From UHGV virus genome UHGV-0176895: a DNA stretch of 34,472 bases; one strand, given 5' to 3'. A model generated the notes under the pieces. That model did not search any database, was not told where the DNA came from, and saw only the letters and a program-made list of their open reading frames with translations. This DNA is from a virus. Shown piece after piece: positions 10,873 through 12,237 of the stretch. Within the stretch, counting starts at the first letter, position 1. Each line of letters starts with the position of its first letter. Position numbers and translations under genes: made by a program.

Positions 10873-12237
10873 ATGAATGAAAAGTTGAACCAACTAAAAG
10901 AAAAACTGGATAATTTACATACCACTATTAGTGCAATAAGTTTTCCACAGCAAGATTTTATTGATGTTAACAATTATCAATATCCCTTCTTACATTCAGA
11001 AGATTTAGTATCTTTCCCGAAAATGCTATCTGAAAAGATAGGCAAGATGACTAAGTTTGAACCTTCTGAACATGACGTTGAAATTATAGATTCTATAATT
11101 TATTCGTTAGATAAAGCACAACCCAATTTAAACCATTTAAACCACAGCAATACTAATGTATCGGGGCCAGCCATTGCATCGTATTTTGTTTCTATGCTTT
11201 ATATAAGTACGGAAATAAATGAGCTATTTTCGTTTGAAGTTTTAAATAACAAAGAACTTCTTCCAAAAAAAATAATAAACAGACTAGGTTTGTATCAATC
11301 TAATCTTCAAACTATTGAGGAGAAAAGTGGTGACCTCGATAGCAAGATAAATGTAATCAATGAAGCTTATGATGCTGCAGAGAGTTTACCCACAACCTTA
11401 AAATCTCTTAGGGAGACAAATGAGGAAATTAATCAATTAAATGAACTTTCAGAGAAAAATGCTGATTCAATCAATGAAAGATTAGAACAGGCAAAGCTTG
11501 ATGGTAAAGAGTTAAATGACATAAAAAATACGATTGCACAATTACATAAAAATGTAGCGAAAGAAGCTAACGATTATTTGGCTGAACTTAAGGTTGAAGC
11601 TCAAGGATATATCGATAAATGTGAGGAGGCCTTTAGAACAACGACATCTAAAGGTTTAGCTGGAGCTTTTGAAGATAAAGCAAGAAAACTTAACGCCAGT
11701 ATCAGGCTATGGGTAGCAGGCTTAATCGCAGCCCTTGGGGCTGGAGCCGTTGTTGGTTATACTCGATTGCATGCTCTGGAGGCATACTTATCGAATCCTA
11801 ATGCCTCTGGTATCAAACTAACCATACAGCTTATCTTATCGATTCTCAGTGTAGGTGCCCCGCTTTGGTTTGCTTGGTTAGCTACTAAGCAAATTGGTCA
11901 ACGATTCAGATTGGCCGAAGATTATGAATTCAAAGCTAGCGTTTCTAAAGCCTATGAAGGTTATCGTAGAGAAGCGATGCAATTAGACTCTGATTTCTCA
12001 CAGCGTCTTTTTGGCAATGCACTTACTCGACTTGAAGAGCCACCGTTGAGATTCGTTGAGGAAACCGCTCATTCATCTCCAATAATGGAAATGTTATCCT
12101 CTGATGGTTTCAAAAGTTTGGTGGAAAAAGGTGGTGATAAAATGGATGCTGTTCTGGGAAAGGCGGGACTGACAAGAACGAAGAAGATAAATGAAGATAT
12201 TCCCGAAAAAAAAGTTGTACATGATGAAGAAGAATAA
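10873..12237 (+). CDS. Cargo protein, 454 aa: coiled-coil N-terminal region, two predicted transmembrane helices, about 120-aa C-terminal tail; no family recognised
   Basis: ATG at 10873. Hydrophobic segments LWVAGLIAALGAGAVVGY and LTIQLILSILSVGAPLWFAWLA. Sample lines give about 23-37% G+C. Flanked by terminators at 10701..10725 and 12257..12285. Confidence 0.8.
   Translation: MNEKLNQLKEKLDNLHTTISAISFPQQDFIDVNNYQYPFLHSEDLVSFPKMLSEKIGKMTKFEPSEHDVEIIDSIIYSLDKAQPNLNHLNHSNTNVSGPAIASYFVSMLYISTEINELFSFEVLNNKELLPKKIINRLGLYQSNLQTIEEKSGDLDSKINVINEAYDAAESLPTTLKSLRETNEEINQLNELSEKNADSINERLEQAKLDGKELNDIKNTIAQLHKNVAKEANDYLAELKVEAQGYIDKCEEAFRTTTSKGLAGAFEDKARKLNASIRLWVAGLIAALGAGAVVGYTRLHALEAYLSNPNASGIKLTIQLILSILSVGAPLWFAWLATKQIGQRFRLAEDYEFKASVSKAYEGYRREAMQLDSDFSQRLFGNALTRLEEPPLRFVEETAHSSPIMEMLSSDGFKSLVEKGGDKMDAVLGKAGLTRTKKINEDIPEKKVVHDEEE

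Follow-up and report, generated by a model that had tools for sequence, protein, structure and literature searches.

A single low-GC gene between cos and the portal gene

The window, a 34,472-nt stretch of the virus genome UHGV-0176895, represents a P2/186-like prophage and carries a single AT-rich gene between its replication and portal genes. The ORF spans exactly 10873..12237 (+ strand, ATG start) and encodes a 454-aa protein of the PHROG 34659 family. As the first-pass annotation made from the sequence alone had indicated, its composition is distinct, with a GC content of 36.1% compared to 51.2% for the whole window and 53–59% for gpA, Q, and P. This is a real gene and not a chance ORF, since 189 public contigs encode an identical 454-aa protein, and its homologs number more than 1,500.

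On the left side, the replication gene gpA (7566–9980) is followed by a DinI-like gene (10332..10565, + strand, also delimited as 10260–10565; Pfam DinI, E 1.3e-22), the final conserved backbone gene before the hotspot, for which an equivalent 77-aa CDS is annotated by RefSeq in syntenic prophages. This gpA-DinI unit ends in a Rho-independent-type terminator hairpin (10698–10723, + strand), which was also detected as inverted repeat I3 and consists of an 11-bp GC-rich stem followed by CUUUUG (−19.7 kcal/mol, z −4.08, 0 of 200 shuffles equally stable). The left edge of the variable slot (10770..10800, without strand) is formed by the cos core at 10770–10788, a 19-nt cohesive-end homolog GGCGTGGCGGGGATACGAG, together with the conserved CGCGCGCTTAC. 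The cos core aligns to bases 1–30 of P2 cosL, its match is unique within the window (0.06 expected by chance), and every P2-slot locus of the family has this core 100–220 bp ahead of the gene. Across 1,260 E. coli genomes and 80 phage records, flank homology stops at ~10795–10803, and the slot junction is sharp in the alignment (A5).

The cargo-specific 5′ region (10803..10872, + strand), presumed to hold the gene's own promoter and ribosome-binding site, includes AAAGGCGAAG 4 nt before the ATG and co-varies with the cargo allele and not with the phage backbone in the alignment of loci. A sigma-70 scan (consensus ≥9/12) found no site upstream of the ATG, and sites inside the ORF only, as many as in shuffled sequences, so that the gene's own promoter is putative; the upstream regions of different cargo alleles do not align with one another and share no conserved sigma-70 promoter. 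Downstream, a bidirectional terminator (12257–12275; −14.8 and −14.1 kcal/mol on the two strands, z ~−4 ) was detected on both strands and serves both the cargo gene and the P-Q operon that converges on it. It is the counterpart of P2 tQ, which the P2 annotation places at the equivalent position. The portal gene Q (12282–13310, − strand; Pfam Phage_portal, synteny in related prophages) forms the right edge of the slot. The locus is thus a single cargo gene with its own 5′ region, bracketed by terminators on both sides as originally described. An Rfam scan for an RNA partner returned two matches, both far below the gathering score, and a repeat search yielded no meaningful repeats at the cargo gene locus.

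The slot holds known defence systems in related prophages

Lying between gpA and portal gene Q and adjoining cos, the gene is located where cargo of the P2-like gpA–gpQ hotspot is found, a cos-proximal position shown experimentally to house defence systems (Rousset 2022, PMC9122126; Vassallo 2022, PMC9519451). The initial assignment to a cos/old-tin hotspot therefore holds for the gpA–gpQ cos-proximal slot (PMC9122126) but needs correction in its detail, as tin and old in P2 itself occupy the A side of cos and this gene the Q side. The Q-side position constitutes a separate cargo slot, distinct from the A-side tin/old position in P2.

The left flank up to ~10800 is common to 1,260 of 5,426 complete E. 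coli genomes, and just one of these genomes carries this cargo. When the same locus was surveyed in E. coli prophages with a left flank 97.5–99.8% identical to this one, all five of those sampled encoded recognised defence systems in the same slot and orientation, namely 3HP, a type II R-M system, IetAS, retron Ec78/PtuAB, and Lamassu. Slot content thus varies among otherwise homologous prophages, as in a hotspot. Homologs of the 454-aa protein with 37–85% identity also occupy this slot, each straight after the invariant cos core.

The family is sporadic, compositionally foreign, and without a conserved partner

The family comprises 482 clusters (50% identity) at E ≤ 1e-30 and spans many phyla, including Proteobacteria, Bacteroidota, Spirochaetes, Firmicutes, Actinobacteria, and others. 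Its distribution is sporadic (~154 of ~100,000 species genomes), and it occurs in three unrelated kinds of temperate phage. In Burkholderiales prophages, the family gene is the last one between the lysis cassette and the integrase/recombinase, directly downstream of the endolysin cassette, while in Providencia phage PSTCR8lys it lies between early and late genes; at 18 of the 67 viral loci, no more than 1.5 kb separates it from a provirus or contig end. The nearest large neighbours at non-P2 loci include integrases, resolvases, UmuCD, and methyltransferases, along with a minority of defence genes (GmrSD, GajB, Old, NsnA, PD-T4-2, and PDC-S59/S02). A BrnTA pair adjoins one non-P2 family locus.

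Some homologs are stably located between housekeeping genes, such as nrdB-trx in many Xanthomonas and a formate-dehydrogenase cluster in Aeromonas, and these too are compositionally foreign, with a GC content below that of their flanks. Across 103 lineages, the GC of the family gene falls below the flanks in 97%, with a median difference of −9 points. All-against-all clustering of neighbours in 109 lineages revealed no conserved partner gene. No domain fusions were found in the family; one 779-aa ORF (L145) carries no domain in its extension, which probably reflects over-extension of the ORF call in a genome of high GC.

A near-invariant two-TM module follows a variable N-terminal region

Transmembrane (TM) segments were called from Kyte-Doolittle 19-residue windows >1.4 and AlphaFold models. 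Such windows occur at residues 275–299 and 311–338 only, and in AlphaFold both segments are helical with a tight turn at 307–312 between them, which agrees with the two closely spaced TM helices first proposed. The inter-TM loop has a constant length of 19–21 residues in 123 homologs. Since the 276-residue N-terminal part lacks a signal peptide, the topology is most simply read as N-in/C-in, with both large domains cytoplasmic. AlphaFold monomer models have a pTM of 0.32–0.33. Identities below are given in pairs, within Enterobacterales and then among distant members.

Residues 1–120 (10873..11232, + strand), presumed cytoplasmic, are modelled as a compact four-helix bundle (helices 3–20, 42–57, 66–86, and 94–118; pLDDT ~90) and diverge fast (53% / 19%). 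They are followed at residues 132–174 (11266..11394, + strand) by two short helices and a conserved hinge INEAYDAAESLPTT with invariant I162, L172, and P173; the hinge is a low-entropy island at residues 161–180 and has pLDDT <50 at 169–174, between helices. The stalk, residues 175–276 (11395..11700, + strand), belongs to one long helix over residues 175–306 in both models. Its residues 176–242 are hypervariable and coiled-coil-like (38% / 22%), with a patchy heptad signal at residues 197–238. The N-terminal coiled coil of about 270 aa initially described is therefore recovered in part: the stalk is coiled-coil-like, but residues 1–120 form a bundle, and two short helices precede the 130-residue helix.

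Conservation rises sharply in the pre-TM segment CEEAFRTTTSKGLAGAFEDKA (residues 243–276; 88% / 50%), in which T258, G261, L262, and F266 are invariant. TM helix 1, residues 277–297 by hydropathy (11701..11763, + strand), contains an invariant W280 and a small-residue zipper, G283-A287-G291-G295, whose four positions hold a small residue in 31, 37, 37, and 35 of 37 diverse members, respectively. A short variable loop, presumably periplasmic (residues 298–315, 11764..11817, + strand; 65% / 18%), leads to TM helix 2 (residues 316–338, 11818..11886, + strand), which has a polar stripe at Q/H/N319, S323, S326, and P330 along with invariant W332, W335, and T338. Both the TM1 zipper and the TM2 stripe are kept across phyla. 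Conservation in the family peaks in the post-TM juxtamembrane region, residues 339–413 (11887..12111, + strand; KQIGQRFRLAEDYEFKASVSKAYEGYRRE...RLEEPPLRF...SSP), with identities of 89% / 67%, an entropy of 0.3–0.9 bits, and many invariant charged and aromatic residues, the invariant positions including E349, D350, Y351, K354, G363, E389, P391, R393, and P403. Within it, residues 384–401 combine conservation with low pLDDT in the monomer model. The protein ends in a variable, charged, disordered tail (residues 414–454, 12112..12234, + strand; 40% / 13%; pLDDT <50 from residue 432), and the charged C-terminal end noted at the outset is evident in the 17 K+R and 23 D+E of residues 345–454, which terminate in ...HDEEE.

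The near-invariant unit of the family is thus the pre-TM/2TM/post-TM module (residues ~243–413), while the N-terminal bundle, stalk, and tail drift. In one subgroup, merely a short coiled coil stands ahead of the same 2TM module.

Searches match families of unknown function

The protein matches PHROG 34659 over its full length (E 2.8e-86, 291 bits) and is remotely related to PHROG 30912 (E 1.4e-12). Because both are annotated "unknown function", membership is functionally uninformative. Besides these two PHROGs, scans of Pfam, NCBIfam, PADLOC, and PHROGs with the protein, its halves, and 37 relatives gave coiled-coil noise. The original statement that no family could be recognised is thus borne out in four curated HMM libraries, with PHROG 34659 as the sole match. 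A Pfam family precomputed for one relative (PF28231, P0133) was discarded, as the Pfam scan did not reproduce it.

The view that this is not a virion component fits the absence of virion or housekeeping homology in Pfam, PHROGs, NCBIfam, and the PDB. Virion, lysis, and replication families of P2-like phages (PHROG, Pfam) likewise yielded noise only, consisting of tape-measure and spanin coiled coils at E >0.007. In PADLOC-DB v2.0.0 there was no domain-appropriate defence match; the best reached E 5e-6 in a minority of the 37 members, and the weak matches involved mostly coiled-coil parts of LmuB, JetC, the ZorA tail, and DruC, as well as LeoBC. Profile searches against PDB sequences found no match, and the best Foldseek hit against the PDB had an E-value of 0.2. 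Against BFVD, Foldseek retrieved an unnamed 415-aa viral protein (E 6e-5), which is probably a remote member of the family and uninformative.

The searches revealed no recognisable domain for sensing or catalysis in the 454-aa protein. We found no sequence or fold match to alpha-pore-forming toxins (ClyA/YaxAB/Hbl) or colicin channel domains, no detectable sequence homology to MLKL or CC-NLR four-helix-bundle domains, and no SLATT_1-5/DUF4231 Pfam match, either at E ≤ 1 for the protein and its C-terminal half or at E ≤ 0.01 for the 37 relatives. Literature searches by architecture, PHROG id, accession, and peptide or DNA strings, covering the Rousset supplements with part of Table S5, returned no report on the protein.

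Resemblance to known defence systems lies in position and topology

Compared to other gpA–gpQ hotspot cargo (tin, old, 3HP, IetAS, retron Ec78, Lamassu, R-M), the gene shares slot, orientation, and moron-like organisation, as well as low GC and presence or absence among near-identical prophages. It differs from this cargo in lacking any sequence or domain kinship, and in being one gene without a nuclease, ATPase, or reverse-transcriptase domain. At the level of topology, it is similar to 2TM defence effectors (SLATT, CBASS/Pycsar TM effectors, and the 2TM protein of Rst_2TM_1TM_TIR), with a TM hairpin, a short loop, and conserved cytoplasmic flanking helices, and oligomeric membrane disruption is presumed here as it is for these effectors. 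A TM effector has been validated in the P2 hotspot of phage AC1 (PMC9122126). A SLATT protein was nevertheless retrieved by Foldseek only at E 1.4. SLATT, CBASS, and Pycsar effectors are also switched on by a separate signalling enzyme, whereas here a 276-residue N-terminal region is present in cis with no partner gene, and no nucleotide-signal-generating or SLOG/SMODS partner appeared as a conserved neighbour in the 109 lineages.

Lambda RexB, F-plasmid PifA, and lactococcal AbiZ are prophage- or plasmid-borne membrane proteins thought to collapse the membrane potential or hasten lysis on infection. In library scans of PADLOC and Pfam, the 454-aa protein has no homology to them, and it differs in topology and size. 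The PADLOC ZorA match (E ~1e-3) falls mainly on the C-terminal coiled coil of the model, and unlike the ZorA stator this is a protein with two TMs and without a ZorB-type partner. Similarly, the match to LeoBC of Eleos (E 3.7e-5 in 3 of 37 members) covers helical and hairpin parts only, with no Pfam GTPase domain and no LeoA partner.

The same prophage encodes PD-Lambda-1 (DUF4041 + T5orf172) at its int-CI locus (1827–3503, − strand), which is likewise prophage cargo of one gene, low in GC and with a coiled-coil region. PD-Lambda-1 differs in carrying a C-terminal nuclease-type effector, which the 454-aa protein lacks, and the two show no similarity. The DUF4041 architecture with C-terminal DNA-binding/cleavage has been described as putatively membrane-anchored (Vassallo, PMC9519451). 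We considered and rejected an identity of the 454-aa protein with the "membrane-anchored coiled-coil" defence protein of Vassallo, which corresponds to the DUF4041/T5orf172 PD-Lambda-1, a separate gene in the window.

A probable defence role and a tentative membrane-effector mechanism

Considered jointly, these observations suggest that the 454-aa protein probably has a defence function of some sort. Its slot is a known defence hotspot in which all five sampled backbone relatives hold known systems, and the gene itself behaves as cargo, being present in one of 5,426 genomes with homologs in the same slot and family members carried as cargo by unrelated temperate phages. A defence function is further supported by the absence of a partner gene (109 lineages), by a GC content below the flanks (97% of 103), by mobility and defence genes among non-P2 neighbours, by a constant effector-like module behind variable N-termini with conserved zipper and stripe, and by the lack of any virion, lysis, replication, or housekeeping family match. 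Against it stand the lack of homology to any validated defence protein, the PADLOC matches being coiled-coil noise, as well as the minority share of defence genes among nearest non-P2 neighbours and the homologs found among housekeeping genes. Hotspot position is in itself suggestive and not decisive, since only ~1/3 of systems cloned from P4 and P2 hotspots were validated (Rousset, PMC9122126), and antiviral function was predicted for only 15–32% of unknown P2 hotspot proteins (2026 preprint).

Among the alternatives, a non-defence accessory membrane protein appears rather unlikely. Such a protein, involved in remodelling or stress or modulating a conserved host membrane machine, would hitch-hike in permissive slots while aiding either the lysogen or the life cycle of the phage. 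If it bound a conserved host component in a role of this kind, that could explain why the post-TM region is nearly invariant across phyla. Such a role is difficult to reconcile with the sporadic distribution of the family, the lack of a conserved operon partner, its low GC relative to flanks even in housekeeping contexts, and its recurrence in phage cargo slots otherwise filled by defence systems. If the gene does not function in defence, it would still represent a large, highly conserved, unannotated membrane-protein family spread by mobile elements, which matters for annotation pipelines.

We consider it unlikely that the protein acts in superinfection exclusion, i.e., as an inner-membrane prophage protein that leaves the cell alive while blocking the genome entry of incoming phages or the action of their ejection proteins. 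The hotspot position suits any phage-exclusion role, the product is a predicted 2TM inner-membrane protein, and as prophage cargo it presumably relies on its own 5′ region for expression in the lysogen. Contact with the invader would then fall to the variable periplasmic loop or to membrane-proximal parts, and the loop does vary as would a surface under selection (18% identity in distant members). However, with ~390 of 454 residues predicted to be cytoplasmic and a loop of only about 10–18 residues, the protein would make a poor periplasm-facing blocker; its most conserved part is cytoplasmic, it matches no annotated exclusion PHROG, and known Sie/Imm-type proteins are generally much smaller than 454 aa. 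A lysis-related or counter-defence gene serving the phage, either a holin/antiholin-like timing factor or an inhibitor of host membrane-based defence, seems highly improbable. The position directly downstream of the endolysin cassette in Burkholderiales prophages would fit such a role, as would the 2TM topology common among holins and a weak, non-significant XhlA-like match in the N-terminal part (E 0.05). In contrast, the gene of P2-type phages faces the late P-Q operon convergently, a long way from the lysis genes, on a backbone already equipped with holin, lysozyme, and LysA/B/C. Its presence in a small fraction of otherwise identical prophages implies that it is dispensable to the phage, and a 454-aa protein with large cytoplasmic domains and no PHROG lysis annotation is unlike a holin.

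Within a defence function, we regard as evenly poised the more specific proposal of a self-contained, horizontally mobile single-gene anti-phage module expressed from the prophage for the host, while a specific membrane-effector mechanism is slightly more tentative. From position, topology, and conservation pattern we infer a membrane-disrupting or sensor-effector role, as suggested at first reading, and the motifs in the sequence hint at pore formation. The protein would reside inactive in the inner membrane, held back by the N-terminal bundle and stalk, until its fast-evolving cytoplasmic N-terminal part receives a cue from an infecting phage that shifts the conserved LP hinge. TM hairpins may then oligomerise via the TM1 zipper (G283/A287/G291/G295), and the polar stripe of TM2 (Q319/S323/S326) would line the resulting channel or lesion. 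The resulting depolarisation of the inner membrane would halt or kill the infected cell before phage progeny are produced, i.e., abortive infection.

A broader and quite unlikely extension of this mechanism would make the protein the founding member of a wide single-chain "executioner" class in bacteria and phages, which would combine an MLKL/CC-NLR-like bundle and brace helices with a stalk and a glycine-zipper 2TM module, and in which infection would free the bundle and drive formation of an oligomeric inner-membrane pore. If true, this would give prokaryotes an equivalent, independent of any partner gene, of the executioners of necroptosis and resistosomes. The family is unannotated; as a kind of system, membrane-acting defence genes in known hotspots are already known. 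As a defence gene, it would constitute a new single-gene anti-phage system without similarity to any catalogued one. The near-invariant 170-residue 2TM module combined with free N-termini would then offer a tractable model of one polypeptide both sensing infection and damaging the membrane, and the module could be used to search for related effectors.

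Genomic position of the cargo gene

The window is a P2/186-like prophage that opens with a TetR host gene, followed by an integrase (691-1743), a 558-aa low-GC gene, a CI repressor (3524-4120) and a Dam-type methylase, and then runs through gpA (7566-9980), a small ORF (PHROG 698), DinI, a terminator, cos, the gene encoding the 454-aa protein, another terminator, Q, P, and the late genes. The ORF at 10873-12237 (+ strand, ATG start, 454 aa) is a real gene; 189 public contigs encode the identical protein, and a word-indexed search returned >1,500 homologs. It is poorer in GC (36.1%) than the window as a whole (51.2%) and than its neighbours gpA, Q, and P (53-59%), and strong hairpins lie both upstream (10698-10723, -19.7 kcal/mol, z -4.1) and downstream (12257-12275, bidirectional, -14.8 and -14.1 kcal/mol). 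The first-pass annotation had described an ORF of this length at exactly this position, strongly AT-rich and with terminators on either side, and all of these features were recovered. Its assignment to the cos-proximal old-tin region was correct as to the proximity of cos and the place before Q, but not as to the side. Since the cos core, found once in the window, is at 10770-10788 (GGCGTGGCGGGGATACGAG; homologous to P2 cosL, GGCGAGGCGGGGAAAGCAC), the gene sits between cos and the terminator of Q, whereas tin and old of P2 are on the opposite (A) side.

Comparison of the cos site (10770-10800) with P2 (NC_001895, bases 1-30 and 33575-33593) likewise placed the cargo of this prophage lineage on the Q side and that of P2 (tin/old) on the A side; the window's cargo would therefore lie at the far left of the genome as packaged. 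Both sides can hold cargo simultaneously: the prophage of strain NCTC 13148 carries an additional 141-aa gene on the A side (no Pfam or PADLOC match), and another compared locus (L007) carries 72-aa and 280-aa genes there.

A megablast search of 10000-12400 against 5,426 complete E. coli genomes detected the left flank in 1,260, with homology ending at ~10795-10803, a break point that recurs in 80 phage records, and the window's cargo in a single genome, NCTC 13148. Five sampled prophages, with left flanks 97.5-99.8% identical over ~800 bp, encoded five different systems in the same slot and orientation: Hp1-Hp2-Hp3 (3HP system) in S21, a cytosine methyltransferase and NotI-family endonuclease in RM10466, IetA and IetS in strain 127, a retron Ec78 RT with PtuA and PtuB in N10, and LmuA (Cap4 nuclease) with LmuB in 47-1826. 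The cargo hotspot proposed from the sequence is the known gpA-gpQ hotspot, which Rousset et al. 2022 (PMC9122126) defined by experiment and Vassallo et al. 2022 (PMC9519451) confirmed, and by position the gene belongs to the class of P2 gpA-gpQ hotspot cargo. In NCTC 13148 (L001, NZ_OZ510750.1, 7006-8807), portal gene Q is split by an IS1B insertion and the prophage is probably defective, yet the cargo gene has stayed whole, with 98.7% DNA identity over the matched region.

A large, unannotated protein family

Pfam, NCBIfam, and PADLOC yielded only low-scoring coiled-coil noise for the 454-aa protein (SMC, Nuf2, ZorA tail, LmuB, and tape-measure proteins), as did single scans of 37 relatives at 27-58% identity. 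Nothing significant came from profile-searching the full set of PDB sequences, from Foldseek runs on PDB and on viral models, or from Rfam. As the initial reading had recognized no family, so the curated libraries matched only PHROG 34659 (E 2.8e-86) and, remotely, PHROG 30912, both annotated "unknown function". Tested against catalogued defence families, SLATT, ZorA/MotA, Eleos, alpha-pore-forming toxins or colicins, and virion or lysis families, the protein belonged to none, the last result agreeing with its original description as a non-virion protein. Literature searches for its accessions, PHROG identifier, and peptide strings found no mention, and accession and peptide searches did not find it among the tested systems in the accessible part of Rousset et al.

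An exhaustive profile search over 1.84 billion cluster representatives recovered 1,816 proteins at E ≤ 1e-3 and 482 at E ≤ 1e-30. Among the 150 matches listed, nearly all were 400-490 aa long, and the best-matching stretch was query residues ~225-450. Relatives occur in ~154 of ~100,000 species genomes, spanning Gamma-, Beta-, and Alphaproteobacteria, Bacteroidota, Leptospira, Bacillota, Actinobacteria, Planctomycetes, Nitrospinota, and Desulfovibrionales, and at 68 loci on IMG/VR viral contigs. A prophage gene that lies in a known hotspot and is a candidate for single-gene, membrane-acting defence or abortive infection is of a familiar kind; the protein family itself is entirely unannotated, large, and widespread.

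Protein architecture and conservation

Kyte-Doolittle windows (19 residues) exceeded 1.4 solely at residues 275-299 and 311-338, and two independent AlphaFold runs (26 sequences, pLDDT 72; 123 sequences, pLDDT 76) modelled both segments as helices with a tight turn between them at 307-312. The protein closes with a charged C-terminal part whose last residues are HDEEE. The two closely spaced transmembrane (TM) helices and charged tail of the first-pass annotation therefore stand, while its ~270-aa coiled-coil N-terminus does so only in part: heptad periodicity is patchy (1-35, 71-105, 134-189, 197-238), and residues 1-120 are confidently modelled (pLDDT ~90) as a four-helix bundle, not as one coiled coil. 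In the models, this bundle is followed by two short helices and a conserved hinge, then by a single ~130-residue helix into TM1. Any likeness of the bundle to those of MLKL and CC-NLR proteins is tentative. Residues 384-401 are conserved but of low confidence in the monomer model, which hints at an inter-subunit or partner contact.

Conservation is strikingly uneven. Identity to the window protein in Enterobacterales and distant relatives, respectively, was 53% and 19% for the N-bundle (1-130), 38% and 22% for the stalk (176-242), 88% and 50% for the pre-TM segment (243-276), 86% and 64% for TM2 (315-338), 89% and 67% for the post-TM region (339-413), and 40% and 13% for the tail (414-454). 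Among the residues with little or no variation are T258, G261, L262, and F266 before TM1; W280 and a small-residue ladder (G283/A287/G291/G295) in TM1; a polar stripe (Q/H/N319, S323, S326, P330) plus W332, W335, and T338 in TM2; and E349, D350, Y351, K354, G363, E389, P391, R393, and P403 after it. In a subgroup found on viral contigs from the gut (323-380 aa), the C-terminal module is the sole part retained and follows a shorter N-terminus that is entirely coiled coil; this module is therefore the constant functional unit.

Genomic settings and mobility

Clustering of neighbours across 152 loci (109 lineages at 80% identity) revealed no conserved partner gene among these lineages; the commonest neighbours, portal at +1 and terminase at +2 (10 lineages), correspond to the P2 slot. 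Every P2-type locus has an invariant cos core 100-220 bp upstream of the gene, and divergence starts right after ...GCGCGC, tracking the cargo allele. Elsewhere, the gene comes last between the lysis cassette and an integrase or serine recombinase in Burkholderiales prophages, separates the early from the late genes of Providencia phage PSTCR8lys, adjoins BrnT/BrnA in one small islet, interrupts a formate-dehydrogenase cluster in Aeromonas, and in Xanthomonas is inserted singly, with nrdB on one side and a thioredoxin gene on the other. At 74 non-P2 loci, the closest large neighbouring genes included integrases (7), UmuC-type polymerases (4), resolvases (3), GmrSD, GajB, Old, NsnA, PD-T4-2, PDC-S59/S02, and several methyltransferases, along with ordinary metabolic genes. 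The gene was ≤1.5 kb from a provirus or contig end in 18 of 67 viral loci. Gene GC was below flank GC in 97% of 103 lineages (median -9 points, Wilcoxon p 7e-18), including "housekeeping" contexts (52% vs. 65% in Xanthomonas, 40% vs. 66% in Aeromonas). A K/E/N-rich composition could account for part of this deficit, whose size and consistency indicate horizontal acquisition.

In X. campestris (L156-L159, 10001-11275), a 37%-identical homolog lies 86 bp downstream of nrdB and upstream of the thioredoxin gene, with GC 13 points under its flanks; fixed in many Xanthomonas genomes (73 index blocks of the collection), it looks like an old single-gene insertion, stably retained. Two Burkholderiales prophages encode a 93-aa ORF without a Pfam match between the endolysin cassette and the homolog, 176 bp upstream of the latter (L160, 9543-9824; L171, 9544-9825). 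No other part of the family conserves this ORF; it could assist lysis or be a companion gene particular to this lineage.

Putative function

We consider a defence function of some kind probable, and a specific membrane-effector/abortive-infection mechanism at best an even call. What the computation shows is a gene that stands alone between two terminators, has a 5' region of its own, occupies a slot otherwise given to defence systems, and encodes a two-TM hairpin with a short loop of fixed length and a near-invariant juxtamembrane module alongside variable N-terminal parts. Topology would be N-in/C-in, because export of the 276-residue N-terminal domain would require a signal peptide, which it lacks. 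The bundle and stalk at the N-terminus may serve in the cytoplasm as sensor or autoinhibitor, with the conserved A-E-x-L-P motif (residues 168-173) as their hinge; upon infection, TM hairpins would self-associate through the TM1 small-residue zipper, forming a channel or lesion lined by the polar face of TM2, with depolarisation and abortive infection as the putative outcome.

Against a defence role count the lack of homology to any validated defence system and the fact that hotspot genes are not all defensive, since only ~1/3 of the systems cloned from P4 and P2 hotspots by Rousset scored (PMC9122126) and a 2026 preprint predicted 15-32% of unknown P2 hotspot proteins to be antiviral. In addition, the post-TM region might stay invariant across phyla for another reason, namely that it binds a conserved host machine. 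A non-defence membrane protein hitch-hiking in permissive slots would suit this conserved C-terminal region and the chromosomal occurrences, yet fits poorly with a sporadic, compositionally foreign, cargo-slot distribution, and we regard it as unlikely. Superinfection exclusion at the inner membrane is a still weaker candidate: a lysogen-expressed membrane protein with a variable loop would be suitable, but ~85% of the mass is predicted to be cytoplasmic. That the protein serves lysis or counter-defence for the phage itself is hardly credible, with the gene present in few otherwise identical prophages and a full lysis cassette already in the backbone.

Other features of the prophage

The 558-aa cargo gene between integrase and CI repressor (1827-3503, - strand, GC ~36%) encodes DUF4041 and T5orf172/MUG113 domains and matches PADLOC PD-Lambda-1 (E 1e-119), in agreement with the DUF4041 plus C-terminal domain architecture described by Vassallo 2022 (PMC9519451). 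As PD-Lambda-1 is a PADLOC defence family, the prophage holds a recognised defence gene at another locus. A D12-class N6-adenine DNA methyltransferase (Dam-like; 6652-7569, + strand) directly precedes gpA, overlapping its start, and is kept in all syntenic prophages examined. Finally, the low-GC tail-fibre region (24500-27700), with a resolvase/invertase gene (27096-27656), an unassigned ORF at 26468-26890, and a tail-fibre assembly gene (Caudo_TAP, 25644-26159) in opposite orientation, has the appearance of a segment that inverts to switch tail fibres and host range.
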